This document shows positions 2,295 to 59,571 of a DNA stretch of 64,000 nucleotides, in pieces (the stretch's first letter is position 1; every line of letters begins with the position of its first letter). The notes beneath the pieces are model-generated. The model did no database searches, was not told where the DNA came from, and saw nothing but the letters and a program-made list of their open reading frames with translations. The translations under genes were made by a program, and so were the position numbers. The stretch is taken from NCBI GenBank assembly GCA_902635945.1, contig CACPPU010000001.1, forward strand, positions 211,891 through 275,890. Direction: 5' to 3'. Source of the stretch: an uncultured Candidatus Actinomarina sp. (GTDB lineage Bacteria; Actinomycetota; Acidimicrobiia; Actinomarinales; Actinomarinaceae).

Positions 2295-3728
2295 TTAATT
2301 ATTATCTTTAACTTTTATAAAAAATCCAACAATTAAAATTGCAACCATGTATCCAATAAGCATTAATGCAAAAGTTAGGGAAAAAGAGCCCATGCTCAAT
2401 AATTCCTGTTGAAGATTTGAGAATTCACTATCTGGAGAGACTATCAATATTCTTATAAACAGCCACAAACCAAGCAAAAAAGAAAGCATTGGAAAAATTT
2501 TGTAAAACCCTTTTGAATCCTTTAATGACTCAACTAGTTCATTTCCTCCACCTGGTAGAGCTTTAAGTAAAACTCCTTCAATGCACATTAAATAACTAAT
2601 TGCGGCAATAGCAGTCAAGACACTTGAGTTAAGAATATATGGGACAGATGTTAGGTAGAAAAATCCAAAACCAACCGCACTTAAAGAAATTGAAGAATAA
2701 AACTTTGGTGAAAGTGTACTAACAGGTCTTTCGCTTATTATGTAACTTGTCGCTATAAATCCAAAAATAAACCCAATAGGCATAGCAAAATATATAAAAG
2801 CAAGAGTTGAGACTAAAGCAAATAATATAGCTTGTGGCGCCCACTTAAATTTCACAGTTTGGTTAAGGAATTGGCTTTCAATAATACCCTCAATACCCTC
2901 ATAAAAGAAAGTAACTGACAGTAACCCAACAAAAGCTGCAATAAACACCGCTAAGTTTTCTAAATCAAGCACCAAAGATGCTCCCTCTTCAACATACCCG
3001 ATTAGAAATGCAGTCATAAATAAAGCAAAAAGTATCTTAATAAAGTTAACAACTCTAGATGTGCCAGAAACATCTCTCTCACTAAAGAAGAACTTTACCT
3101 TGTTTTCAGAGAGAACTTTGTTGAACCATTCCTGTACTAATAAAACTAAATAAAAAAGAATAACTATTGCAGTTGTGATGATAAAAGCAATACTATTTTT
3201 TTCCTGATCAGTTAAATCGATGTCTTCGAAGAGCGGTATGGAAGTTATAAGTTCGTTAGTAATTTCAATATCTAAAAAATTAGTACTTTCAACTATGGGA
3301 GGTGGAATTGTCGTAGTAGTTGTCGAGGTGGTGGTCGAAGAAGTAGTCGTAGTCTCAATCACCTTTGCTGTTAGAAGTGCAGAATTCTGATAAGTCTCTT
3401 TTACAAATTCAACGCACTTTACTGCATTACAGCTTTCATCTGTTTCATCAACGGCTTTAGTTATTTGAACAGTTAAGATAATCTTGACTTCATCTGGATA
3501 ACAACAGAGCTGCAATTCACCACTTTTGGAAGGTACTTGAAAAGCATAAATACTATCTAAATGTTGTATTTCTAAAAATATTTGATCATAATCTTCGTAC
3601 TGGATTAACCAAGAAACTTCAATACTTTCATCTTCTAGTCTGTCTACTTCGATTGAGATATTGTCTTCGTCGACAGTGCTAAATATTAGAAAAAAACAAC
3701 ATAGTGAGAAAATAATTTTTAATTTCAT
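2295..3728 (-). CDS. Unknown polytopic membrane protein: signal peptide, ~130 aa Cys-containing ectodomain, Thr/Ser-rich stalk, ~8 TM helices
   Basis: The 477 aa ORF has an N-terminal MKLKIIFSLCCFFLIFS signal and the stalk TTTTSSTTTSTTTTTIPPP, followed by repeated hydrophobic helices. Its start overlaps the TetR stop (ATGA at 3725..3728). I recognise no family. Confidence 0.6.
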   Translation of the reverse strand: MKLKIIFSLCCFFLIFSTVDEDNISIEVDRLEDESIEVSWLIQYEDYDQIFLEIQHLDSIYAFQVPSKSGELQLCCYPDEVKIILTVQITKAVDETDESCNAVKCVEFVKETYQNSALLTAKVIETTTTSSTTTSTTTTTIPPPIVESTNFLDIEITNELITSIPLFEDIDLTDQEKNSIAFIITTAIVILFYLVLLVQEWFNKVLSENKVKFFFSERDVSGTSRVVNFIKILFALFMTAFLIGYVEEGASLVLDLENLAVFIAAFVGLLSVTFFYEGIEGIIESQFLNQTVKFKWAPQAILFALVSTLAFIYFAMPIGFIFGFIATSYIISERPVSTLSPKFYSSISLSAVGFGFFYLTSVPYILNSSVLTAIAAISYLMCIEGVLLKALPGGGNELVESLKDSKGFYKIFPMLSFLLGLWLFIRILIVSPDSEFSNLQQELLSMGSFSLTFALMLIGYMVAILIVGFFIKVKDNN

Positions 3729-4366
3729 TGATTTCCTTGAACAGCAAGACCTTGCTCTAAAGCCAAAGATGTTTCATTAAGGAACCATTCATCTGTAAAT
3801 GATGACCAAAAACTAGATTCACTGCTAAATCGCATCCACATAAATAAGCAACCGTTAAAATTGCGAATGGTATTTAATGCCAATTTCTTTGCATCAATAG
3901 ATTGATGATCTTTAATGTAATCATTGCAAAGATTAAGGAGTACATCAAAAGGTTCATTAGATATCCAATTACCACTTGAAACTATTTCATTTATATTAAA
4001 GAACATGTAACGAGCAGCAGCTCCTAACTGTATAACTGCCTCAGCTTGCAATTCTATAAATTTATTAATTCTTAATTTAGGATCTTCAACAGACTTAAAA
4101 TATTCTACTAGTTCTTTCTCAACTTCTTGAAAGGCTGAATTAAATATAGCACCGTAAACATCAACCATATTATTTGGGAAATGATTGTAAGCAGTTGCTA
4201 CAGATGTGCCAGCATTTTTTGCAATCATTGAGACATTTATTTTTTTCTTATCTAAATCAGGATCTTGGAGTAGTATTATTGCACTATTTATTAATTTTAA
4301 TTGAGAATCATCATAAATTGTTTTTTGACGAGCAGACCTACCGTCAACTTTTTTTTCGTCTTTCAT
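3725..4366 (-). CDS. TetR-family transcriptional regulator
   Basis: N-terminal HTH SMIAKNAGTSVATAYNHFPNN in a ~210 aa all-helical protein. Its start is 5 nt after the giant gene's stop. Confidence 0.85.
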   Translation of the reverse strand: MKDEKKVDGRSARQKTIYDDSQLKLINSAIILLQDPDLDKKKINVSMIAKNAGTSVATAYNHFPNNMVDVYGAIFNSAFQEVEKELVEYFKSVEDPKLRINKFIELQAEAVIQLGAAARYMFFNINEIVSSGNWISNEPFDVLLNLCNDYIKDHQSIDAKKLALNTIRNFNGCLFMWMRFSSESSFWSSFTDEWFLNETSLALEQGLAVQGNQ

Positions 4367-16379: not shown

Positions 16380-17357
16380 CTATAAAACGTTTTCACCCAT
16401 AAACAAGGCTGATACTGAATCATCTGTAAATATTGATGTTAGTGCGTTAGCAATTATTGTTGAAACGCTGAGAACCTCTACTTTACCAATTTCTTTTGAA
16501 TTTCCATTTTGAGTTAAAGTGTCTGTAACAATTATTCTATCAATCGGTGCATCCTTTAACTGTACAACGGATCCATCAGAGAAAATACCATGTGTTGCAA
16601 CTACGTTTACTGATTTTACGCCTTTTTCTTTAATAATTCTTGATGCAGCTGCAATAGTGCCTCCGGTGTCAATGATGTCATCCAAAATAATTACATGCCT
16701 ATCCTCAACTTCTCCGATTACAGTAAATGACTTTACTTCATTGTGAATCTTTGGATCTCTCTTTTTGTGAACAAAACCTACATAAGCCTCTAAATGTTTT
16801 GCAAACGTTGTCGCTCTTCCAACTCCACCAGCGTCAGGAGAAATTACTGAAATTGGGCCATCAAACTTTTCTTTAAAATAATCTACAAATAATGGCATCG
16901 CTGTTAAATGGTCAAATGGTTGATCCACAAATCCTTGTATTTGTTGTGTATGTAAATCTATTGAAACTAACCTATCTACACCAGCAGCTATAAACATATC
17001 AGCAATTAACCTTGCAGTGATTGGTTCTCTTGGTAATGCCTTCTTGTCTTGTCTTGAATATGGATAAAAAGGTAGAACTGCAGTTATTCTTTTTGCAGAA
17101 GCTCTTTTAAGAGCATCAACTAAAACTAGTTGTTCCATAATTGTTTTATTGATATCGCCAGAGTGACTCTGTAAAACAAAACAATCTGCACCTCTTACAC
17201 TTTCATTTAATCTGATATAAATCTCGCCACTAGCAAATTCTTTAGATTCTACAGTGGATACTTCAGTACCAAGATTAAATGCGACATTAGACGCAAGCTC
17301 TTCGTTTGAAGAGCCAGAAAAAAGAAGCATCTTTTTCTTACCTGGTTGCTCAATCAT
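16380..17357 (-). CDS. prs: Ribose-phosphate pyrophosphokinase
   Basis: DLHTQQIQGFVDQPFDHL and the PRPP-binding motif ILDDIIDTGGTI. Confidence 0.95.
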   Translation of the reverse strand: MIEQPGKKKMLLFSGSSNEELASNVAFNLGTEVSTVESKEFASGEIYIRLNESVRGADCFVLQSHSGDINKTIMEQLVLVDALKRASAKRITAVLPFYPYSRQDKKALPREPITARLIADMFIAAGVDRLVSIDLHTQQIQGFVDQPFDHLTAMPLFVDYFKEKFDGPISVISPDAGGVGRATTFAKHLEAYVGFVHKKRDPKIHNEVKSFTVIGEVEDRHVIILDDIIDTGGTIAAASRIIKEKGVKSVNVVATHGIFSDGSVVQLKDAPIDRIIVTDTLTQNGNSKEIGKVEVLSVSTIIANALTSIFTDDSVSALFMGENVL

Positions 17358-18715
17358 TTTTTCTTTTTCCTGTCGACATATCCTTCGACATTTTTTTGAT
17401 TATTTCTCTCAATTCCTAATGCTTTTGATGGAACATCTTTAGTAATAACTGAACCTGCTCCAATCATAGATTCTTCTCCAATTGTAACTGGGGCAATTAA
17501 CATCACATCTGATCCTATAAATGCTCCATCTTTAATCTCTGTTTTGTGCTTTTCTTTTCCATCGTAATTAACAGTAATTGCACCCGCAGAGAAATTAACA
17601 TTCTCCCCTAGTTCAGCATCTCCAACATAAGCAAGGTGAGGTACTTTGCTTCCTTTACCTATTTTTGACTTTTTAGTTTCTGCAAAAGAACCAACTTTGA
17701 CTCCCTCTCCTAGTTCAGAACCTGGTCTGATGTGAGCAAATGGTCCTATGTTTCCATTTTCTTGGATTGTTGATTGATCTATTACAGAATTTATTACTGT
17801 TGAATTTTTTCCAATACTGGAGTCATTAATTTGAGCATTTGGACCAATTACACAGTCAATATCAATACTAGTTTTGCCAGTTAAATGAGTGTTAGCTAAT
17901 ATTTTTGTCCCAGAAGATATAGTTACTTCAGAGTCAATGTAAGTGGAAGTAGGATCTTGAAAATAAACACCCTGTTCCATGAAACCTTCAATTAATTTTT
18001 TCTGCATTATGTCTTCAACTTCGTTTAGTTGACTCATAGAGTTTATTCCTTTAATTGAGTCTTCATCTACTTGTACTATAACGATATCTTGTTTTTGATT
18101 ATTTGCAATACCTATTAAGTCAGTTAAGTAAAATTCTCCTTGGGCATTTTTAGTATCTAGAGAGTCAATATTATCAATTAAGAAATCTGTATTAAAACAA
18201 TAAATACCTGAATTGATTTCATTAATTTTTCTTTCATCATCATTGCAGTCTTTTTCTTCCACAATTCTTATCTCTTTATTATTTCTAACAACTCTTCCAT
18301 ACCCATATGGATTTTTCACTTTAGAAGTAAGGAATCCTACTGATGAAGATTTAGTTTTTACTTCGCTTATAAGATTTTGGATATCTTTAGCATCAATGGC
18401 TGGAACATCCCCTGGAACAACTAATGTAAATTCAGATTTATTTTCAACAAATATTTCACCGCTAACAACAGTGGAAACTGCATGTCCTGTACCTAATTGC
18501 TCTTTCTGTAATATATGTTTTGTTGTAGGAGGTAATGAATCAACAACCATATCTGATTCATGCCCTACAACTACATACTGGTTTTCAATAAAAGAAAGTG
18601 TATCTAAAGAATGAGCGAGTATTGCTTTACCAAGAACTTTGTTTAAAACCTTAGGCAAGTTGGACTTCATCCTAGTCCCTTTACCTGCTGCTAATACTAC
18701 GACTGATACACTCAT
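17354..18715 (-). CDS. glmU: Bifunctional UDP-N-acetylglucosamine pyrophosphorylase / GlcN-1-P N-acetyltransferase
   Basis: VVLAAGKGTRMKSNLPKVL at the N-terminus and C-terminal hexapeptide (LbH) repeats. It overlaps prs by 4 nt. Confidence 0.95.
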   Translation of the reverse strand: MSVSVVVLAAGKGTRMKSNLPKVLNKVLGKAILAHSLDTLSFIENQYVVVGHESDMVVDSLPPTTKHILQKEQLGTGHAVSTVVSGEIFVENKSEFTLVVPGDVPAIDAKDIQNLISEVKTKSSSVGFLTSKVKNPYGYGRVVRNNKEIRIVEEKDCNDDERKINEINSGIYCFNTDFLIDNIDSLDTKNAQGEFYLTDLIGIANNQKQDIVIVQVDEDSIKGINSMSQLNEVEDIMQKKLIEGFMEQGVYFQDPTSTYIDSEVTISSGTKILANTHLTGKTSIDIDCVIGPNAQINDSSIGKNSTVINSVIDQSTIQENGNIGPFAHIRPGSELGEGVKVGSFAETKKSKIGKGSKVPHLAYVGDAELGENVNFSAGAITVNYDGKEKHKTEIKDGAFIGSDVMLIAPVTIGEESMIGAGSVITKDVPSKALGIERNNQKNVEGYVDRKKKK

Positions 18716-27070: not shown

Positions 27071-27406
27071 TGGTGGAGGTGCGGGGAGTCGAACCCCGGT
27101 CCTTCCAAGCTATCTAACAGCTTCTCCGAGTGCATCCGATAAAATACGATCAGGCTAGTTATCGGAACCTATGGCCTGAAAGGTTTACCTTAATCTTAGT
27201 AGTTAGTCGGTATCCTAACTAAGCATCCCACATTTCGACGCCATTGCTATCCGAGGTGGGAGCCCCGATAGGTGACGAGCAGCTTATGCTGCTAAAGCCA
27301 ACTTAGGTTTGGCAGTTATATTGTTTTCCTACGTTTTTTACGAGGCCCTAGGACCCTCGACTCGCTACTGAGAGACTCACTTCAAAGTCGAAGCCAGTTC
27401 ACCCCC
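27071..27406 (-). ncRNA. ssrA: tmRNA (SsrA)
   Basis: 5' GGGGGTGAACTGGCTTCGAC and 3' GGGGTTCGACTCCCCGCACCTCCACCA. The acceptor stem has a G3:U pair (Ala identity). An internal tag ORF ends GCT TTA GCA GCA TAA (..ALAA*). smpB lies 7.5 kb away. Confidence 0.9.
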
Positions 27407-27458: not shown

Positions 27459-28103
27459 ATGAAAATTAATAACAATAGCTTTGAATTAAATGAAAAACTA
27501 TCAGTAACTATTGATTCTTCTGATAATGACGGATTGGTTTTTATTCCAAATAATGTTGAATTAATCGTTGAAATTGAAAATTATTTTGGAAAAATTACGA
27601 TAAATAACATTGGAATCTCCCCTGTTGAAAGTGAATTTCAAATAAGTAAAAATAGTATAGAGTCACACATACCAAACCTTGATATCAAATTGCTAGATCG
27701 ATATATATACAAAATTTTGTCTGATAAAGCAGGTCTTGCATACTCTCCATATACTTACTTTCCAAATTACGACTTTACAGTTTTTGAAAAAGGAAGAAGG
27801 CCATCAAGCTTAGATTGGTCCATGTTTGCATCGCTATATGTATTTAGCTGTAATGTACTCCCTCTATCAATCAAAGTTGAACTTTCCCTCGCAAAATATT
27901 TAAGAATTTCAGAAGAAAATTTTAAAAGATTTATGAAAAAAATTCCTCAAGAATTATTTAGAAAGTCAGGACACATAGATTCAAGAGGTGGGGATATATC
28001 TTTAGATGCTGAGAATTTAATTAAGCAATATCTTGGTGAAGACCAGAGTGCATTTGAGAACAATCCGTTTTTAAAGTTTTACTCAGAAGTAGATTTTGCC
28101 TGA
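27459..28103 (+). CDS. Hypothetical protein
   Basis: 214 aa ORF with no recognisable motif. It overlaps the convergent neighbour by 25 nt. Confidence 0.45.
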   Translation: MKINNNSFELNEKLSVTIDSSDNDGLVFIPNNVELIVEIENYFGKITINNIGISPVESEFQISKNSIESHIPNLDIKLLDRYIYKILSDKAGLAYSPYTYFPNYDFTVFEKGRRPSSLDWSMFASLYVFSCNVLPLSIKVELSLAKYLRISEENFKRFMKKIPQELFRKSGHIDSRGGDISLDAENLIKQYLGEDQSAFENNPFLKFYSEVDFA

Positions 28104-28519
28104 GGTCTAAGCATCGAGTTTATTTTTTTTGGCGTAATCTTCCAGAGTTCCCTACTTTTAATTTTGTCGTAGTCCCAAGCTTGATCTAGTTCTCTTCTGT
28201 ATGGTTTTCCCGTGTATCTGATAGAGAGTTTATCAATATGATCATCAGCTGATTTTTCAGAAATTATTTCTGTCACCTCTCCCCTAATCTCCCAGCTGGA
28301 ATACATTGCTGTTGGATGAAAAACTACTAATGAAATACTTGAGTTGTTTCTTATATTCTCTGTTTTTTTTCTATCTTTTTCGGTATTAATAAGTATGCAA
28401 TTATCTTGATAGTCAACCCACATAAGATGCGTTTGGATTTCATTATCTTTCAAATGAGTTGAAATTGCACAGAAAGCATTATTATCAATTGCTTCTTTAA
28501 GTTCTTTTGAAAGTTGCAT
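28079..28519 (-). CDS. Pyridoxamine 5'-phosphate oxidase (PPOX-class, probably F420-dependent) family protein
   Basis: Small split-barrel pattern: AFCAISTHLKDNEIQTHLMWVDY..ILINT...K..NI..N..ISLVV. The F420 assignment is by analogy with actinobacterial PPOX-class proteins. Confidence 0.65.
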   Translation of the reverse strand: MQLSKELKEAIDNNAFCAISTHLKDNEIQTHLMWVDYQDNCILINTEKDRKKTENIRNNSSISLVVFHPTAMYSSWEIRGEVTEIISEKSADDHIDKLSIRYTGKPYRRELDQAWDYDKIKSRELWKITPKKINSMLRPQAKSTSE

Positions 28520-28549
28520 ACAGTATTATTTTAAGTAAAAATAGACAAT

Positions 28550-29110
28550 ATGGCTTTCATAAAATTATTTGATTTTAAAAATTCAACTGGACTTTTAAAA
28601 AAAGAATACGAAAAAGGCTTAAGAAGAGCTGGAAGAATATGGAATGTATTAACAATACAGTCACAAACTCCAGAAATACTCAGAGACTCAATGCGTCTCT
28701 ATAATTCAACAATGTTTGGAATTTCAAACGTTCCACGCTTTGATCGTGAACTGCTTGCAGTAGTTACTTCAATTTCCAATGAATGTGAATACTGAATAAG
28801 AGCCCATTTATATGATCTCCGGTCGGAGACAAAAGATCAAAAATTAGTTGATGAAGTAGCTGTTAACTGGAAGGAAAGTGGTTTAACAGAACAACAAAAA
28901 GCTATCTGCTACTTTGCTGAAAAATTAACACTTAATCCTGGGAAAATTGATAAATCAGACGTACAAAAAATTAAAGAATTTGGATATGTTGATAAGGAAG
29001 TTACAGAGATAGTGCAAATAATTTCTTACTTTAATTATATAAATAGAGTTGCTGATGGGCTTGGATTAGAAGCTGAAGATTTTATAGATGAAAAAGGATA
29101 CAAAAAATAA
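28550..29110 (+). CDS. AhpD-like / carboxymuconolactone decarboxylase (peroxidase-related) family protein with in-frame TGA (candidate selenocysteine) at 28793..28795
   Basis: The track ORF ends ...VVTSISNECEY at a TGA. The same frame continues with no stop: IRAHLYDLRSETKDQ...GLTEQQKAICYFAEKLTLNPGKI...EIVQIISYFNYINRVADGLGLE...KK, ending at TAA 29108..29110. This reconstitutes the family motif N-x-C-x-Y-[C/U]-x-x-x-H. Confidence 0.65.
28816..28829 (+). promoter_or_regulatory. Candidate bacterial SECIS core hairpin (UCUCC-GGUC-GGAGA)
   Basis: A 5 bp stem with a GGUC tetraloop that starts 25 nt after the UGA. Bulged A-U pairs could extend the stem. Confidence 0.4.
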
Positions 29111-29151
29111 TTTCCTTTATAAGAGGGTAATATCCTTTTAACATAAGTTGT

Positions 29152-30291
29152 ATGAATCAAACTATTAAGTCCTCAATTTTGTTAATAAGTTTGCTTGGTG
29201 TAAGTTTTTTCGCTTTTAATTTTTTAAGTGATTCACTTGATCAACAAAGTGATACAACACAAGTAGAAACCACTGTAACTTCAACAACTACTCAAATACA
29301 AATAGAAATTGATAGGTTTAATGCATTAGATATTAGCTTGAGAGAATTTATTGACAGTGAACTACTTTCGATAAGTGACGAATGTATAAAATTTGGGTCT
29401 TGGTTTAGCCTAACTGAAAATTGTCTTAATGAATGGTTGTCTGTACTTAATAATATAGATGAAAAAAGTACAACATACGCATCTCATTATGCTTATGCTA
29501 AAAGTTATTTTATTTCAAATTATCAAAACTTAAATGAAGAAGATGTTGAAAATATACTCGATTCTTTAAGCATTGAGTCAGACCTCGCTGTTTGGAATGA
29601 AAAATTAATAGAAGTAACAAGCGTACTAAATATAAAAAATAGTCAAGAGGAAACAACAGCAATATTTCTAAATGATTCAGTAATAAATAAATCTAAAAAT
29701 CTTGGTACATCAGATCTAAAAGATGGCTGTTTAGATTCAACACAAATTAAAGAAAATTTTGAAGAAGAATGGGTAATGCCTGAAAATGTAAATCCAAGAG
29801 ATGAGGAAAAATTTAATTACGCAATAAAAATAGAGCCTTCACTTGGTCTTGATCCTTTATGTATTAAAAATCTTTTGTTTCTTATACTAAATAATGACCT
29901 TGGTTGGACAAATATTGCTGAAAAATCTTTTCAGCTAACTAGTGTCGAAGATAGCGACTATGTTTATATTTTTGCGTCACCAGAAAAAACTGATGAATTA
30001 TGCGCACCAATTGAAACCAACAGTATCTACTCATGCAGAAATGAGCAAAATATTGTACTTAACTTTTTTAGATGGGAAAACGGCGCTGTTGATTTCAAAA
30101 ATGATATTGAAACATATAGAATCTACCTAATTAATCATGAAACAGGACATATTCTTGGCTGGGGACACGTAGGTTGTCCAAAAGAAGGAGCTATTGCTCC
30201 TGTCATGATGCAGCAAAGTAAAGGAACTGAAGGATGCATCCCATATGGATGGCCTGCTTACGAAACAATAAAAAGTAAATTTGATCAGTAA
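29152..30291 (+). CDS. Secreted/anchored protein with a C-terminal HExxH zinc-peptidase-like domain (DUF3152-like by recollection)
   Basis: N-terminal TM/signal SILLISLLGVSFFAF, the linker TTVTSTTTQ, and the C-terminal motif NHETGHILGWGH. Confidence 0.6.
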   Translation: MNQTIKSSILLISLLGVSFFAFNFLSDSLDQQSDTTQVETTVTSTTTQIQIEIDRFNALDISLREFIDSELLSISDECIKFGSWFSLTENCLNEWLSVLNNIDEKSTTYASHYAYAKSYFISNYQNLNEEDVENILDSLSIESDLAVWNEKLIEVTSVLNIKNSQEETTAIFLNDSVINKSKNLGTSDLKDGCLDSTQIKENFEEEWVMPENVNPRDEEKFNYAIKIEPSLGLDPLCIKNLLFLILNNDLGWTNIAEKSFQLTSVEDSDYVYIFASPEKTDELCAPIETNSIYSCRNEQNIVLNFFRWENGAVDFKNDIETYRIYLINHETGHILGWGHVGCPKEGAIAPVMMQQSKGTEGCIPYGWPAYETIKSKFDQ

Positions 30292-32170: not shown

Positions 32171-32419
32171 CTAAATGTAATTTAATTCTTTTAATTTATT
32201 TTCAAGATCAATATCTGATGGTTCAACCAATAATGATCCGTCATCAAAAACAATAGTGGGTATCCTTCTTTGATTAACTTGTAAAGATTTGATATATTCG
32301 TTTGCTTCTTGGTTAACATCAACATTGATCTCATTAAAATCAATGTTTAATTTTTTCAAAAGAGCTTTAGACCTCACACAGTCTCCACACCAATCAGTAG
32401 TATAAAAATCTATTTTCAT
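32171..32419 (-). CDS. Glutaredoxin-like small redox protein
   Basis: The 82 aa ORF begins KIDFYTTDWCGDCVRSK (CxxC) and has a thioredoxin-fold length. Confidence 0.75.
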   Translation of the reverse strand: MKIDFYTTDWCGDCVRSKALLKKLNIDFNEINVDVNQEANEYIKSLQVNQRRIPTIVFDDGSLLVEPSDIDLENKLKELNYI

Positions 32420-32420
32420 T

Positions 32421-32681
32421 TTATGAATTTCCTTGAAGTGGGTCTAGCAATATAGTAAGCAGGTCACTTATTCCTGCCAAGCTTTGAAAAGCTGTCTCAA
32501 GTGAAATCACTGTATCAACGGCAACCTCTAACTTGGGTAGCAACGATTGGATATCTGCAATAACCGCTAAAGCATTATCAACTTCTGCAGACAAAGTTTG
32601 TAACTCTGAATACAAGAAATACCCAGCACCCAAAAATAAGGTTAAAAGAACTATTTGGAAAAAAAGAATTAATCTAAGCAA
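32421..32681 (-). CDS. Small single-TM hypothetical protein
   Basis: An 86 aa ORF packed with 1-nt spacers between trxA and the glutaredoxin-like gene. Confidence 0.4.
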   Translation of the reverse strand: MLRLILFFQIVLLTLFLGAGYFLYSELQTLSAEVDNALAVIADIQSLLPKLEVAVDTVISLETAFQSLAGISDLLTILLDPLQGNS

Positions 32682-32682
32682 A

Positions 32683-32991
32683 TTAAATTAGTGCTGAAAC
32701 TTTTTCTTTTATGACTTCTTTTGGTTGTACACCAACGAATCTTTCTTTAACTTCTCCGCCTTTAAGCATTACAACTGTAGGTACACCCATAACACCATTT
32801 GCTCCAGCAATTTCTGGATGTTGATCAACATCAAGCTTAACAAACTCTACTCCATCAACTTCACTTGAGAGTTCTTCCAAAATAGGGCTTAAAACTTTAC
32901 AAGGACCGCACCATGTAGCATGAAAATCAATTACAACTGGTGCTTCAGAACTTAATAATTCATTATATTCTTGAGCATTTATATCTTTCAT
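32683..32991 (-). CDS. trxA: Thioredoxin
   Basis: FHATWCGPCKVL in a 102 aa protein. Confidence 0.9.
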   Translation of the reverse strand: MKDINAQEYNELLSSEAPVVIDFHATWCGPCKVLSPILEELSSEVDGVEFVKLDVDQHPEIAGANGVMGVPTVVMLKGGEVKERFVGVQPKEVIKEKVSALI

Positions 32992-33088
32992 TTATCTCCT
33001 TAATTGCTTACTTATTTTATAACCTTTGGATTTATACAAGTAACTTTCTGTGACAAATAAATTAGAATTTTTCTTTATAATTGAACAC

Positions 33089-34618
33089 ATGAACAATGTA
33101 ATTGTTTCTCCACACTACTTATCAACAGAACTTGGTTCAACAATTTTTAATAAGGGTGGTAATGCTGTAGATGCAGCAATATTGACAAATCTCGTCCAAG
33201 GAATAGTTGCACCAGAAACTTGTGGTATTGGTGGAGATTTATTTGCACTTATTTGGGTCCCAGGTAAAAATAAACCAGAATTTCTTGATGCATCTGGTTA
33301 TTCAGGCAGCAATGTTGATCAAAGCTTACTATCAAATTATGAGAGCATACCTTTAAATCATCCTTTATCAGTAACTGTTCCAGGTGCTGTTGGAGGTTGG
33401 AGGGAGTTGAGTAATAAGTATGGAGCTATTCCTATTGAAGATATTCTAGATATTGGAATAAACCTCTGTCACGAAGGATTTTCAGTGAGTAAAGAGCTAT
33501 ATAATTCGTTAAATATTCACGGCGAAGAATTGAGTGGACAAAAATCAGGGTATTCATTCTATAGAGATAATAAACCCTATAGCATTGATACATTAATTAG
33601 ACGACCACAGCTAGGAAAGACTCTTGAGTTATTAAAAAACCATGGGCTTGAATATTTTTACAATGGTGAAATTGCCAAAGAGATATCTAATTCTGTAAAC
33701 GGTTTTATAACTGAAGAAGACTTATCAAACTATGAAGCTATCTGGAGAGAACCGCTGCACCAAAAAATTTATGGATACGATGGTTGGACTAGTCCTCCAA
33801 GTACACAGGGATACTTAACATTAAGCACTTTAAAGGGTTTTGAAATGATCGATAATAAAGATGACTATCTTCATACATTAATTGAGTCTTATAGAATTTT
33901 TGCATCAGACAGGGACAATATTACTTTTGATTATCAAGGAAATGATCAAAACTTTTTAGGTACTGATAGTGAATATATAAGAGATAAAGTAAGTCTTTTT
34001 GACAAGAATGCTGCCGGAAAATATAATTTTCCAATCCCTCATGGAGGAGGTACTGCTTACATGAATGCAGTTGATGAAAGTGGTTTAGGTATTTCATTAA
34101 TTCAATCAAACTTCTATGGTATTGGCAGCAGAATTGGTGTGGGAAATTATGGATTTTTTCTTCACAACAGAGGATGTGGATTTAATCTAATCAGAGGCCA
34201 TCCAAATAATTTAGGTCCCAACAAAAAGCCTTTACATACTTTATCTCCTACAATATGGTCTAAAAATGGCTCTTTAGAATTTATTACTGGGACTAGAGGG
34301 GGGCGTTATCAACCTCAGTTGCTTGCTCAAACCATACTTCCTTACATTCTTGGAGAAAGTAGTTTCGAAGAGATAATGAAAAAACCTAGATGGACGATAG
34401 AATATTTTGGATCTAATACTTCTTCTAATATTAAGTTTGAATTTATAAAGGAACCTGAAATATCCTCTCTAGAAGACAAAGGTCATAAAATTTCAGTTGA
34501 AGACAAACTCATTGGAGGGTACGGTCCAATTTCAACAATTTATAAGAACTCTTATGAAAAGTTTGTTGGAGTACCAGACATTAGAGTCGGTACTGAAAAA
34601 GCATTTAATAATTCCTAA
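33089..34618 (+). CDS. ggt: Gamma-glutamyltranspeptidase family protein
   Basis: GGNAVDAAI and the autoprocessing site KKPLHTLSPTIW (nucleophile Thr). I prefer the ATG at 33089; the track starts at the GTG at 33050. Confidence 0.85.
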   Translation: MNNVIVSPHYLSTELGSTIFNKGGNAVDAAILTNLVQGIVAPETCGIGGDLFALIWVPGKNKPEFLDASGYSGSNVDQSLLSNYESIPLNHPLSVTVPGAVGGWRELSNKYGAIPIEDILDIGINLCHEGFSVSKELYNSLNIHGEELSGQKSGYSFYRDNKPYSIDTLIRRPQLGKTLELLKNHGLEYFYNGEIAKEISNSVNGFITEEDLSNYEAIWREPLHQKIYGYDGWTSPPSTQGYLTLSTLKGFEMIDNKDDYLHTLIESYRIFASDRDNITFDYQGNDQNFLGTDSEYIRDKVSLFDKNAAGKYNFPIPHGGGTAYMNAVDESGLGISLIQSNFYGIGSRIGVGNYGFFLHNRGCGFNLIRGHPNNLGPNKKPLHTLSPTIWSKNGSLEFITGTRGGRYQPQLLAQTILPYILGESSFEEIMKKPRWTIEYFGSNTSSNIKFEFIKEPEISSLEDKGHKISVEDKLIGGYGPISTIYKNSYEKFVGVPDIRVGTEKAFNNS

Positions 34619-35036
34619 TTTCTTTAGAGTGTTCTTTATTTAAAATCTTTTTTCTTTTGTCGTAATCTTTTTTACCTTTAGCTAAAGCTAATTCGATTTT
34701 AATGTATCCATTTTTTTCAAAAACCTTTGTTGCAATTAACGTATACCCCTTTTGAGACAAAAGTCCTATAAGTTTCTTTATCTCACCTTTATGTAAAAGA
34801 AGTTTTCTCTGGGACTTAGGATCGTAATCTGTATTATCAGAATATTTATAGGGCTCAATATTCATTTCCATGATATACGCCTCTTCTTTATCAATACTTG
34901 CAAAAGCATCAACTATTGAAACACCGCCACTTCTGACACTTTTTGTTTCTGGTCCAGAAAGAACTACTCCTGCTTCATAGAAATCTAAAAACTCATAAGA
35001 ATTTCTTGCTTTTCGATTTTCAGCAAATACTTTCAT
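34605..35036 (-). CDS. smpB: SsrA-binding protein
   Basis: NRKARNSYEFLDFYEAGVVLSGPETKSVR. The ATG at 35036 overlaps the upstream TGA by 1 nt. Confidence 0.9.
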   Translation of the reverse strand: MKVFAENRKARNSYEFLDFYEAGVVLSGPETKSVRSGGVSIVDAFASIDKEEAYIMEMNIEPYKYSDNTDYDPKSQRKLLLHKGEIKKLIGLLSQKGYTLIATKVFEKNGYIKIELALAKGKKDYDKRKKILNKEHSKEIRNY

Positions 35037-36409
35037 CAATCGAGGAAACAATATGGGTTGACTCTACCACGAGAGGTCGGATCTAGATATGCTAATGAAC
35101 AATTTGCTGAGCTTGGGTTTCTTAATCTTGTTTCAAAATGAAGATGTGGTCCTGTAGTTCTGCCAGTTGTGCCAATGGTGCCTATTTGATCTCCACTTAT
35201 TACTGACTGACCAACACTTACTAAAATTTTGTCCATGTGAAAATATAATGTTGTCATTCCACCACCATGATCAATAAACACAGTTCTTCCAGCATTGCCA
35301 TAATATCTTGCAAGTATTACAACTCCACCACCCGCAGCATATATGGGTGTACCTCTAGAGGCGGCAATATCTATGGCACCATGAAAGCTTGTAGTGCCAC
35401 CAAGTCTTCTCCATTTATAACCACTTGAAACATAACCTGTCTGGACTGGCCAAAAAAGTTTATCGGGTGCAACACCTCCAGAACTACTTAACCTTTCAAT
35501 ATCAGCTTGGATAGCATCCTCAAGTTTTTCAAGATCAGCATGCTCTTTGTCTAATTTTTCAAGTTCTTTATTTGCTTGATTTAATAAACCCTGTGCATTC
35601 TTCCTTGCCTGAACCACTTGTGCCTTTTTAGACTCTACTAATCTTTTCTCTCGCTCAACTGCTTCTTTCTTATCTTCAATTTCTTCTGCAAACTCCTCAG
35701 CTTCAATAGATATTTCATTTTTTCTTTCTTCTTCATTTTGAAGATTAGTTACTATTTCAACTCTCTCTTCTTCACGTTGAGTCAAAAATTCTGTTTGATT
35801 AGATGCTAAATTTTCGAGTGCATTTAATTGTTCAACTATTTCATAAGCTGAATCAACAACAGTAGACGCATACCCTAATGCTACTAAGAAATTTGAAAGT
35901 TCATCTAGCTCTATGAATAAAGCAGTTGTAGGGCTCATGACTCCATTTATATAAAGACTTACAGCTTGCTCCTGAAGCCCTTCATCAGCTACTAAAAGTT
36001 TTTTTTGCGTTTCAAGTAACTCATTTGATACTTCAGAAATCTCATTTTTAATTTTTCCGAGTTTAATTTGTTCATTAATAATATTTTCTTGTACTGCTAC
36101 TAAATCGTTTAATGTAAAATCGTAATTTTCTAATGCCTTTGCTAACTCTCGTTCAACAACTGCCAATCTACTTTGTACTTCTGCTAGTTCGCTATTCACC
36201 TGTGCAAGGTCTTTATCGTTTGCAATTATTGCTTTTTCTAAATCTGTTCTTTCACCTTCATACTTACTTATTTGTTCAGCAATTGCTTGGAGTTGTCTTT
36301 CAACCTCGATTAACCTATCTTCCGCTGTAATTGCAATTAGTTCATTAGGAAACAAAAAAGAAGTAAAGAAAAAAATGGGGATAAAAAATATTGTAATTTT
36401 TTTAATCAT
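35036..36409 (-). CDS. Coiled-coil M23 family peptidoglycan endopeptidase (EnvC/PcsB-like architecture)
   Basis: A signal peptide and ~300 aa of heptad-rich sequence, then the M23 motifs FHGAIDIAA (HxxxD) and GPHLHFE (HxH). Confidence 0.85.
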   Translation of the reverse strand: MIKKITIFFIPIFFFTSFLFPNELIAITAEDRLIEVERQLQAIAEQISKYEGERTDLEKAIIANDKDLAQVNSELAEVQSRLAVVERELAKALENYDFTLNDLVAVQENIINEQIKLGKIKNEISEVSNELLETQKKLLVADEGLQEQAVSLYINGVMSPTTALFIELDELSNFLVALGYASTVVDSAYEIVEQLNALENLASNQTEFLTQREEERVEIVTNLQNEEERKNEISIEAEEFAEEIEDKKEAVEREKRLVESKKAQVVQARKNAQGLLNQANKELEKLDKEHADLEKLEDAIQADIERLSSSGGVAPDKLFWPVQTGYVSSGYKWRRLGGTTSFHGAIDIAASRGTPIYAAGGGVVILARYYGNAGRTVFIDHGGGMTTLYFHMDKILVSVGQSVISGDQIGTIGTTGRTTGPHLHFETRLRNPSSANCSLAYLDPTSRGRVNPYCFLD

Positions 36410-57677: not shown

Positions 57678-59032
57678 TTATTTGCTTCTTTAGCTAGAAA
57701 GTTAAAATAGCCAAGAACTCCAAATCCTGTACCACCCTCTGGATAAATGGAACTGCTTGATCTAGACCTTGCAGGTCCAGCAATATCTAAATGTATCCAG
57801 TTTAGATCATCAACAAACTCTTCAAGAAGTAAAGCAGCTGTTATTGCTCCCCCAAACCTTCCCCCAGAGTTCTTCATATCAGCGATGTTAGATTTAATAA
57901 GTGATTTATAACTTTGTTCCAATGGGAGTGAATGATAGTTTTCAAACCCATCACTGTTAGAATCCAAAAAACTTTCTAGGGTACTTTTGTTATTAGAGAA
58001 AACTGCACCAATCTCAACGCCTAATGCAACATATGCTGCACCAGTAAGTGTGGCAACATCACATATAATGTCTGGCTTACTTTCGCTAGCAAAGGCTAGA
58101 GCATCAGCCATAATCAATCTGCCTTCAGCATCTGTATTCATAACCTCAATAGTTTTACCATTTCTCATGTTTAAAATATCACCTGGTCTAATCGCTGTAC
58201 CGCTAGGCATATTTTCAACTATGGGAGTATAAACTTTCAAGCCTATGTCTAAATCTTGTTTAGCTACTAGTGCAATTATTCCCCAAGCAGTTGCGGCACC
58301 AGCCATGTCTGTTTTCATTGTTTCCATACCAGCAGGAGATTTCAAAGAGAGTCCACCTGAGTCAAACAGAACACCTTTACCTATTAATGAAATCTGCTTT
58401 TTTGCTTTTGGATTATATTCTCCAACTAGAAATTTTGGAGATCTTTCGGAGCCTTGAGACACTCCAATAACTCCTCCCATATTATTTTCTTTAATCCATC
58501 CTTCATCATACGATTTAAAACTAATTTTTAATCCATCAATTAATTCCTCAACCTTAGCCTGAAAAAACTCTGGAGATTTAGTTAGTGCTGGAAAATTAAC
58601 CATATCTCGAACCCAAAATATTGAATTGACTTTATTTTCAATTTCTGTTGAGAATTCACTATTTAAAATATTTATATTTATTTCTTGAGACTTAGTTGAT
58701 TTGAAATTTTCAAATCGGTAAGTAGACAACATTATTCCTAATTCAATTAAATACATGTTTAAATTTTCAGCAATAGCGGTTAATTTCAAATCGCAATCAA
58801 TATTGATTTTTTTACCAATCGATGCTCCGAGATTTACAAAATCATATTCTGATTTGCAACCATCGGTACCAACTATGAGAAGCGCTGTCTCATCTGTTGA
58901 GTTGTAGTTTGACATATAAAACATTTGATTTTTTTTAGCTTCAAATTTATTGGCTTCAAACAAAATTCGATTTCCATCATAATTGTCAATGCTTTCATTA
59001 ACTCGATCTGTAAGTAGAACTTCAATTTTCAT
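57674..59032 (-). CDS. pepA: Leucyl aminopeptidase (M17)
   Basis: GKGVLFDSGG and NTDAEGRL. Confidence 0.9.
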   Translation of the reverse strand: MKIEVLLTDRVNESIDNYDGNRILFEANKFEAKKNQMFYMSNYNSTDETALLIVGTDGCKSEYDFVNLGASIGKKINIDCDLKLTAIAENLNMYLIELGIMLSTYRFENFKSTKSQEININILNSEFSTEIENKVNSIFWVRDMVNFPALTKSPEFFQAKVEELIDGLKISFKSYDEGWIKENNMGGVIGVSQGSERSPKFLVGEYNPKAKKQISLIGKGVLFDSGGLSLKSPAGMETMKTDMAGAATAWGIIALVAKQDLDIGLKVYTPIVENMPSGTAIRPGDILNMRNGKTIEVMNTDAEGRLIMADALAFASESKPDIICDVATLTGAAYVALGVEIGAVFSNNKSTLESFLDSNSDGFENYHSLPLEQSYKSLIKSNIADMKNSGGRFGGAITAALLLEEFVDDLNWIHLDIAGPARSRSSSSIYPEGGTGFGVLGYFNFLAKEANN

Positions 59033-59571
59033 TTACTTGATGTCCATTCTTTTTCAAAATCTCTCGCCATCATCCATAATAAGTCAGATAGTCTATTTAG
59101 ATATATTAAGACAAAAGTGTCCTCGATTTCATTAATTTTTTTCCATGCAACACATTTTCTCTCAGCTCTTCGTGATACAACTCTACACCAATCAAATTTT
59201 GAAGAAATACTATTTTCACCAGGAACTACAAAAAAATCTGGAATTCCATTCTTATCAGTTAAATAGTCTATATCTTTTTCAAGGCTTTCTACCATACTGC
59301 TAGTAACAAGTGTCTCTGCTGGTTTTAATTTTGATCTACTCTTTTTCGAAGTTGCGAGCTCTGCTCCAACAACAAACAATTCTCTTTGAATTCTTAAAAC
59401 GACTTCCTTGGTCTCAAGAGGTAGTTCTTTTTCATATCTGATTAGTCCCAGAGCAGCAACTAGTTCATCAACAGATCCATAAGCTTCAGGTGCGATACTG
59501 TCTTTGGATACAGCATCTCCATATAAAAGCCTGGTTTCACCTTTATCTCCTTTTTTGGTATAAATCTTCAT
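59029..59571 (-). CDS. PduO-type ATP:cob(I)alamin adenosyltransferase
   Basis: MKIYTKKGDKGETRL at the N-terminus of a 180 aa protein. Confidence 0.85.
   Translation of the reverse strand: MKIYTKKGDKGETRLLYGDAVSKDSIAPEAYGSVDELVAALGLIRYEKELPLETKEVVLRIQRELFVVGAELATSKKSRSKLKPAETLVTSSMVESLEKDIDYLTDKNGIPDFFVVPGENSISSKFDWCRVVSRRAERKCVAWKKINEIEDTFVLIYLNRLSDLLWMMARDFEKEWTSSK

Follow-up and report, generated by a model that had tools for sequence, protein, structure and literature searches.

A predicted AhpD-like selenoprotein of Candidatus Actinomarina and the small conserved hairpin downstream of its UGA codon

The window analyzed here, a 64-kb stretch of low G+C content (~32%) from an uncultured Candidatus Actinomarina sp. 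(contig CACPPU010000001.1), carries at 28550-29110 (+ strand) a reading frame with one internal UGA codon. We consider it very probable that this is a single gene for an AhpD-like protein of 186 residues, with selenocysteine (Sec) predicted at UGA codon 82 and its insertion directed by a Sec insertion sequence (SECIS) hairpin. On the standard bacterial mechanism, from which we infer Sec insertion, translation would start at AUG 28550 and would not terminate at the UGA (28793-28795), the hairpin at 28816-28829 would act as a bacterial SECIS and recruit SelB-GTP-Sec-tRNA(Sec), Sec would be inserted as residue 82, and translation would run on to the TAA at 29108; what the analysis itself contributes is the UGA, an open and selected frame downstream of it, and conservation of the hairpin at the RNA level. 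By analogy with Mycobacterium tuberculosis, the product may be reduced by a dihydrolipoyl-E2 protein and hand the electrons on, either to a peroxiredoxin or to hydroperoxides themselves.

The gene is of an already known kind, and it brings little that is new for biology, as AhpD-like selenoproteins with a CxxU motif (U, Sec) have been catalogued from ocean metagenomes since 2005. Public Actinomarina assemblies and protein sets, however, carry it truncated, split, or with a Trp, and the correct reading would give back a redox enzyme to a bacterium that ranks among the most abundant in the surface ocean and add a named member to the ~5 selenoproteins lately predicted per Actinomarina genome. Residual interest lies in the linkage of related genes to an E2 gene, in the very small Actinomarina SECIS, a minimal natural element on which SelB recognition could be tested, and in a Sec-to-Arg variant that retains the hairpin.

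Reading frame, active site and conservation of the UGA codon

The first open reading frame (ORF) occupies 28550..28795, running for 81 codons from ATG 28550 and ending in ...SISNECEY-TGA. Past the TGA (28793-28795) another 104 codons follow in the same frame without a stop, none of them Met, up to the TAA at 29108-29110, and the joined 186-residue product reads N-E-C-E-Y-[TGA]-I-R-A-H around residue 82; the peptide spanning this residue is ELLAVVTSISNECEY[82]IR. Stops make up ~8% of random codons at the base composition of the window, which gives an estimated probability of ~2e-4 for 104 open codons, and past the TGA of the 11 other long ORFs that end this way in the window, the frame stays open for just 0-51 codons.

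With residue 82 entered as Cys for the profile search, the 186-residue product reaches 135.5 bits on TIGR01926 "peroxidase-related enzyme" (NCBIfam; cutoff 81.8), its residues 13-175 covering positions 12-175 of the 178 in the profile, and 34.2 bits on Pfam CMD (cutoff 23). Sequence comparison with the solved relatives 6k40, 2oyo, 3c1l, 2pfx, and 2prr gave E values of 1e-19 to 3e-25. NECEY-UGA-IRAH lines up with NRCVYCAVSH in 6k40 and with NRCLYCAVSH in 2oyo, placing the UGA opposite the second Cys of CxxC. An earlier note on this DNA, made from the sequence without database searches, had described the end of the first ORF, its Met-less continuation, and the joined product exactly as found here, and had put the TGA at the second redox Cys of the family motif, an assignment that these alignments and the TIGR01926 score bear out.

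Glu67, Cys79, Tyr81, residue 82, and His86 correspond to the proton-relay signature Glu-x11-Cys-x-Tyr-Cys-x3-His, known from Pseudomonas aeruginosa PA0269 and M. tuberculosis AhpD (PMC3141380), with Sec predicted in place of the second Cys. In every sequence-level criterion of the AhpD-like CxxU selenoprotein family, the window gene thus appears as a member. Its score against another family, NF041238 (AhpD_rel_CFYUT), is 49.4 bits, far below the cutoff of 175, and the protein therefore falls outside that family.

Relatives comprised 80 loci found by scanning genomes at one per species and six metagenome contigs reached via the split gene call, so that the comparison covers 87 sequences, the window gene and 86 related loci, at 41-98% protein identity. 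The best-matching loci (96-98% identity) are Candidatus Actinomarina single-cell genomes, such as AG-911-M23, where the gene lies on contig L001 with 98% protein identity, and the remaining ones belong to other Actinomarinales, to GC-rich Acidimicrobiia, and to a few metagenome-assembled genomes (MAGs) labelled Acidobacteriota or Chloroflexota. Across this whole range of identity, codon 82 is TGA and codon 79 is TGT or TGC in 86/86 related loci. All 30 distinct Actinomarina genes begin with ATG and have a single TGA within an undamaged frame of 186-190 codons. Median ratios of nonsynonymous to synonymous substitution rates (dN/dS, Nei-Gojobori) are 0.056 upstream of the UGA (codons 1-81) and 0.134 downstream of it (codons 83-185), with dS saturated (>1.3); a downstream ratio of 0.134 at saturated dS indicates that the part after the TGA is translated. 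Metagenome protein sets (P0001-P0036, P0058-P0066) show either a Trp at residue 82 or a split into proteins of 81 and 104 residues. The Trp is a gene-calling artefact of the genetic code 4 type, since the DNA (locus L089, for protein P0001) has TGA.

TGA terminates 11 of the 50 long ORFs of the window (22%), and the genetic code is therefore standard here. Genes ending in this way include those for KsgA, a cobalamin adenosyltransferase, a GDPD-family protein (glycerophosphodiester phosphodiesterase), and an M23 peptidase (35036..36409); in the KsgA, adenosyltransferase, and GDPD-family cases, the Pfam match reaches the C-terminal end of the profile. The earlier note had named two genes as examples of TGA acting as a normal stop, of which the M23 peptidase gene stood up, while no TetR gene was identified (the one TGA-terminated ORF of TetR-like size that was scanned, 3725..4366 with 213 residues, has no Pfam match). 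Among 36 mechanical ORF-TGA-ORF candidates in the window, CxxU or UxxC context occurs only at 28550-29110; the other candidates were rejected as selenoproteins, and most look like shadow frames of known genes. The longest TGA read-through, 51 codons, follows the full-length cobalamin adenosyltransferase gene, and one of 34 codons follows a gene with nucleotidyltransferase and hexapeptide-repeat domains. Both TGAs look like ordinary stops, because no Cys lies near either of them.

A conserved hairpin downstream of the UGA codon

The stem of the hairpin starts at the 21st nucleotide (nt) past the UGA, and the gap between UGA and apical loop is 25 nt (28796-28820). An extra pair, G28814-C28830, is possible across a bulged A28815. 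In the bacterial SECIS model, the apical loop has 3-9 nt and the upper stem 4-16 bp, at least one G stands in the first two loop positions (usually as GG or GU), and the minimum free energy is -7.5 kcal/mol or lower (PMC13188914). In the lengths of its loop and stem, in its leading G, and in its spacing of 25 nt, the window hairpin agrees with the model. The sequence UCUCC-GGUC-GGAGA had been singled out in the earlier note, and it is found precisely at the position given there, at the spacing expected of a SECIS, and conserved in relatives.

The comparative evidence for the hairpin as an RNA element is strong. Four core stem pairs are kept in 87/87 sequences, in an ungapped alignment, and the pair at alignment columns 36:49 covaries, being C-G in 46 sequences, U-A in 29, U-G in three, and broken in none. 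Pairing is possible in 84% of cells, compared with 35-50% when partners are slid, and the observed covariation score was reached by none of 500 shuffles. Actinomarina shows the U-A state as GAU...ACA, and GC-rich genomes have it separately as GAU...AUC, which means at least two events. When the Actinomarina sequences are folded as a subset, their consensus is this very hairpin, a 5-bp stem closed by the GGUC loop. In other Acidimicrobiia the stem is CGACCUC(C)/(G)GAGGUCG, with 7-8 bp and energies of -8.2 to -14.0 kcal/mol. Apical loops in relatives are GGUC or CGGGNN/CGUGCC, and that of the window opens with GG.

Codon choice across the hairpin is similarly constrained. Codons 89-93 read GAT CTC CGG TCG GAG in 30/30 Actinomarina genes, apart from a change of CTC to CTT in four, by which a G-U pair is kept. 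Arg91 is CGG in all 30, as against six different codons at Arg84, and adjacent codons vary freely. The string at codons 89-93 draws on the least used synonymous codons of the window, namely CGG for Arg (1.0%), TCG for Ser (3.7%), and CTC for Leu (5.5%), and its joint probability under the codon usage of the window is 4e-6.

A different structure, the minimum-energy fold of 28785-28860 (UGAUCU/AGAUCA pairing), is specific to the window and not kept in relatives; it was set aside and not taken as evidence in either direction.

Table 1. Features of the predicted selenoprotein gene, followed by neighbouring genes and related loci. Positions are those of the window, or of a related locus where an L number precedes them.
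Feature	Position	Strand	Details
AhpD-like (TIGR01926/COG2128, CMD-fold) coding sequence (CDS), predicted selenoprotein	28550..29110	+	186 codons + TAA, one in-frame UGA
Glu67 codon, predicted proton-relay glutamate	28748..28750	+	12 residues N-terminal of Cys79; from sequence, E-x11-C-x-Y-C-x3-H spacing (PMC3141380)
Redox motif C79-E-Y-U82 (TGT GAA TAC TGA), Sec predicted	28784..28795	+	position 79 TGT/TGC and position 82 TGA in all 86 related loci
UGA codon 82, predicted to be read as Sec	28793..28795	+	TGA in 87/87 sequences; opposite second Cys of C-x-Y-C homologues
His86 codon, predicted proton-relay histidine (U-x3-H)	28805..28807	+	His in 87/87 sequences; aligned His in solved homologues
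Putative SECIS hairpin within the CDS	28816..28829	+	5' arm UCUCC 28816-28820, apical loop GGUC 28821-28824, 3' arm GGAGA 28825-28829
True stop codon TAA	29108..29110	+	frame reading
Nucleotidyltransferase + hexapeptide-repeat gene	17354-18715	-	TGA stop
Transfer-messenger RNA (tmRNA) gene	27071-27406	-	tag AKPKLALAA
ORF of 214 residues	27459-28103	+	no Pfam family
PNPOx-like gene	28079-28519	-
Glutaredoxin gene	32171-32419	-	redox cluster 32171-34618
ORF of 86 residues	32421-32681	-	redox cluster; no Pfam family
Thioredoxin gene	32683-32991	-	redox cluster
Gamma-glutamyltranspeptidase gene	33050-34618	+	redox cluster
smpB	34605-35051	-
Cobalamin adenosyltransferase gene	59029-59571	-	TGA stop
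Example E1 locus (within L025-L080)	L032:5794-7653
Example E2 locus (within L025-L080)	L041:6869-8566
Cys-form orthologues	L092:5001-5570; L095:2501-3070; L096:2501-3070; L097:816-1385		TGC at codon 82, motif T-R-Y-C
Arg-form orthologues	L090:5001-5582; L091:638-1219		protein P0056; AGA at Sec position

Objections and alternative explanations

Several observations weigh against a SECIS-directed selenoprotein, the first group of them concerning the RNA. The Actinomarina hairpin is weak, at -5.6 to -6.9 kcal/mol, just short of the -7.5 threshold, the segment meant by that threshold being uncertain, and the window hairpin attains -8.4 kcal/mol only if an unrelated second hairpin of the 63-nt segment is counted. 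Folding of the single sequence 28785-28860 is not significant (z = -0.36 vs shuffles), and support for the hairpin therefore comes from the relatives. No Rfam SECIS family was found in 28400-29300 at E up to 10, where the search returned just chance matches to eukaryotic small nucleolar RNA and microRNA families; a preprint on Actinomarina is likewise without a Rfam SECIS match (bioRxiv 10.64898/2026.04.03.716425). Two-sided covariation is limited to one stem pair, and the complementarity of the hairpin is partly forced by the conserved peptide D-L-R-x-E-V.

The second group concerns the decoding machinery. Searches by tblastn with E. coli SelA, SelB, and SelD gave no match to selA, selB, or selD at 1e-3 in the window or in any of the 86 loci, and ARAGORN scans of the window and of 60 related loci found no tRNA-Sec; for the window, the earlier note had reached the same result. 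In the genus, tRNA-Sec (selC), selA, selD, and a divergent selB were reported in 84/84 complete Actinomarina genomes, with ~5 selenoproteins predicted per genome and no AhpD-like one named (bioRxiv 10.64898/2026.04.03.716425). This contradicts a genome-wide lack of Sec machinery, which the earlier note had named as one way for its proposal to fail. The case for such machinery in the source genome comes from this genus-level preprint report.

Could the gene simply be dead, a TGG or TGC having mutated to TGA and the downstream frame being a relic? A single substitution separates TGA from TGG, TGC, and TGT, gene callers cut the gene at 81 residues, and no Sec machinery lies within the window. However, the same TGA recurs in 87/87 sequences at 41-98% identity, among them MAGs of several phyla, and all 30 Actinomarina copies keep the downstream frame with a dN/dS of 0.134 at saturated dS, rather than frameshifts or a dN/dS near 1. 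The catalytic His and the family-invariant FNYINR motif, both 3' of the TGA, are conserved as well, and we regard a pseudogene as extremely improbable. Decay of the downstream half in close relatives, set beforehand in the earlier note as the mark of a pseudogene, is excluded by the TGA and first Cys in 87/87 sequences and by purifying selection on that half. Real termination at the UGA, giving an 81-residue protein or else two products, the second an internally started C-terminal protein of 104 residues, would agree with metagenome annotations that call genes of exactly these lengths, and SelB-dependent read-through in bacteria is not known to reach 100% efficiency. Such a second product would have to begin without a Met in the window, however, and the 'M' of the called 104-residue proteins is a Leu codon used as start; the stretch I-R-A-H-L between the TGA and the called start is conserved and holds the catalytic His. 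Moreover, the CMD/TIGR01926 domain spans the TGA, neither half being a complete fold, and the RNA element marked by frozen synonymous sites lies at exactly SECIS distance, which leaves termination very improbable, if marginally less so than a pseudogene.

Read-through that does not involve selenium is the least improbable of the three alternatives, although we still give it little credence. A near-cognate or suppressor tRNA would put Trp, Cys, or Gly at codon 82, or the code would be locally reassigned, and the hairpin would just stimulate the event. Some bacteria do insert Cys or Trp at Sec codons under selenium limitation; in addition, public protein sets give W at codon 82, the Actinomarina hairpin is short, and Actinomarina SelB is reported to be divergent. 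Set against this are the standard code, under which 22% of long ORFs end normally at TGA, and the origin of the 'W' in gene callers, the DNA being TGA. Position 82 is where the family has its redox-active Cys, and UGA-less Cys-form orthologues carry TGC there; the genus is reported to have selA/B/C/D (bioRxiv 10.64898/2026.04.03.716425); and AhpD-like is already an established selenoprotein family. Jointly, a pseudogene, a split or truncated gene, and selenium-independent read-through take up only a small part of the probability, and we retain a Sec-decoded gene as the very probable reading.

Orthologues, gene neighbourhood and known systems

Four Cys-form orthologues (Table 1) differ from the Sec forms, which always have C-x-Y-U, in that the first motif Cys is lost and the second is encoded by TGC. 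In all four the hairpin Leu is replaced by Tyr or Phe, and three have an A-A mismatch in the central stem. An Arg form was observed in a relative of 59% G+C (loci L090 and L091), in a different gene neighbourhood, where AGA, one substitution from TGA, stands at the Sec position and the hairpin is still undamaged (GACCUC-CGGGCU-GAGGUC, -9.2 kcal/mol). Judging from these sequences, the Arg form looks like a recent loss of Sec.

In Actinomarina, there is no obvious functional link between the gene and its neighbours, which are a DUF3152 gene and, in divergent orientation, a gene of the pyridoxamine 5'-phosphate oxidase family (PNPOx-like). In GC-rich Acidimicrobiia, the stop codon of a 2-oxoacid dehydrogenase E2 gene lies 3-9 nt before the start of the orthologue, on the same strand, in 30 of the 48 loci with enough upstream sequence. 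The E2 has lipoyl, E3-binding, and acyltransferase domains, and the order is E1 alpha and E1 beta, E2, and the AhpD-like gene, with an S10 peptidase gene following; Cys-form orthologues (e.g., L092, L095, L096) share the E1-E2 gene order. This adjacency suggests a lipoyl-E2-coupled redox relay like that of M. tuberculosis, and the order offers a testable electron donor for the family. By analogy, the product most likely serves peroxide defence as a selenol/thiol oxidoreductase that receives its electrons from a lipoyl-E2 protein, and the electron-donor side of this proposal has some support from E1-E2 adjacency in other Acidimicrobiia. Weighing against it, tblastn with Acidimicrobiia queries found E1, E2, and S10 peptidase genes absent from the window and the Actinomarina loci, and tblastn with E. 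coli AhpC and Lpd found neither in the window or the Actinomarina loci, with one Lpd match 9 kb away in locus L037. A literature search combining AhpD, selenocysteine, and lipoamide returned no papers.

More tentatively, the Acidimicrobiia AhpD-like selenoprotein might be the last redox gene of a 2-oxoacid dehydrogenase E1alpha-E1beta-E2 operon and serve as a selenium-dependent acceptor of electrons from lipoyl-E2, in effect a Sec version of Lpd-DlaT-AhpD. Actinomarina (~1.1 Mb genome) might then have kept the gene unlinked, as one of ~5 selenoproteins, decoded via an unusually small SECIS (5-bp stem, GGUC, ~-6 kcal/mol) possibly matched to its divergent SelB. We put this forward as a possibility that is less likely than not to hold in full.

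Other features of the window were recorded alongside these. The 214-residue ORF upstream of the selenoprotein gene converges with the PNPOx-like gene and overlaps it by 25 nt at the 3' end of the latter, and the ORF is also conserved beside the selenoprotein gene in Actinomarina metagenome contigs. On the upstream side, 1.1 kb from the selenoprotein gene, lies the tmRNA gene, whose relative position is kept in all Actinomarina loci, and smpB lies ~5.5 kb downstream. A redox cluster is located 3 kb downstream, with genes for glutaredoxin, thioredoxin, and gamma-glutamyltranspeptidase and the 86-residue ORF.

Of the known systems, the solved homologues comprise the alkyl hydroperoxide reductase AhpD 6k40, the uncharacterized peroxidase-related proteins 2oyo, 2pfx, and 2prr, and Mlr4105 (3c1l). 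By sequence comparison they share with the window protein ~160 aligned residues, the N-x-C-x-Y-C-x3-H active-site helix, and a C-terminal ...FN..NRV... motif, and they differ in having Cys where the window gene has UGA and a predicted Sec. In M. tuberculosis, electrons flow from NADH through Lpd, DlaT (E2), AhpD, and AhpC to peroxide (PMC12028322). M. tuberculosis AhpD and P. aeruginosa PA0269 resemble the window protein in the proton-relay signature Glu...Cys-x-x-Cys...His (PMC3141380), and the link of the Acidimicrobiia orthologue to a lipoyl-E2 gene parallels DlaT-AhpD transfer (PMC12028322). However, overall similarity is low, chain topology and length differ, the M. tuberculosis enzyme has Cys instead of Sec, and its gene adjoins ahpC, whereas no AhpC-type gene lies near the window gene. 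The window gene is thus not a member of the M. tuberculosis AhpC/AhpD system, and the resemblance is one of possible working mode.

Among selenoproteins, NF041238 (AhpD_rel_CFYUT) and NF041047 (distant AhpD homologue, CxxU) are likewise CMD-fold redox proteins with Sec in CxxU. The closest comparison is with the "AhpD-like protein" (COG2128, CxxU), described as a new selenoprotein family from the Sargasso Sea with 27 sequences (PMC1088965); "AhpD-like 1" subsequently ranked fourth in abundance among prokaryotic selenoprotein families in the Global Ocean Sampling (GOS) data, with 299 sequences in 37 samples (PMC2398784), and a 2026 review lists the AhpD-like family as TIGR01926, CxxU (PMC13188914). 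The earlier note's statement that such proteins have been reported from marine metagenomes was thus correct. The published AhpD-like 1 genes were not assigned to Actinomarina or Acidimicrobiia, and an E1-E2 neighbourhood is not reported in PMC1088965, PMC2398784, or PMC13188914, so that the linkage of E1, E2, and AhpD-like genes in Acidimicrobiia may be a new finding. In hidden Markov model (HMM) family, in CxxU with Sec predicted at the second Cys, in a putative downstream SECIS with a loop G, and in surface-ocean origin, the window gene and the AhpD-like 1 family agree; there is no essential difference between them, and the window gene appears to be a plain member.

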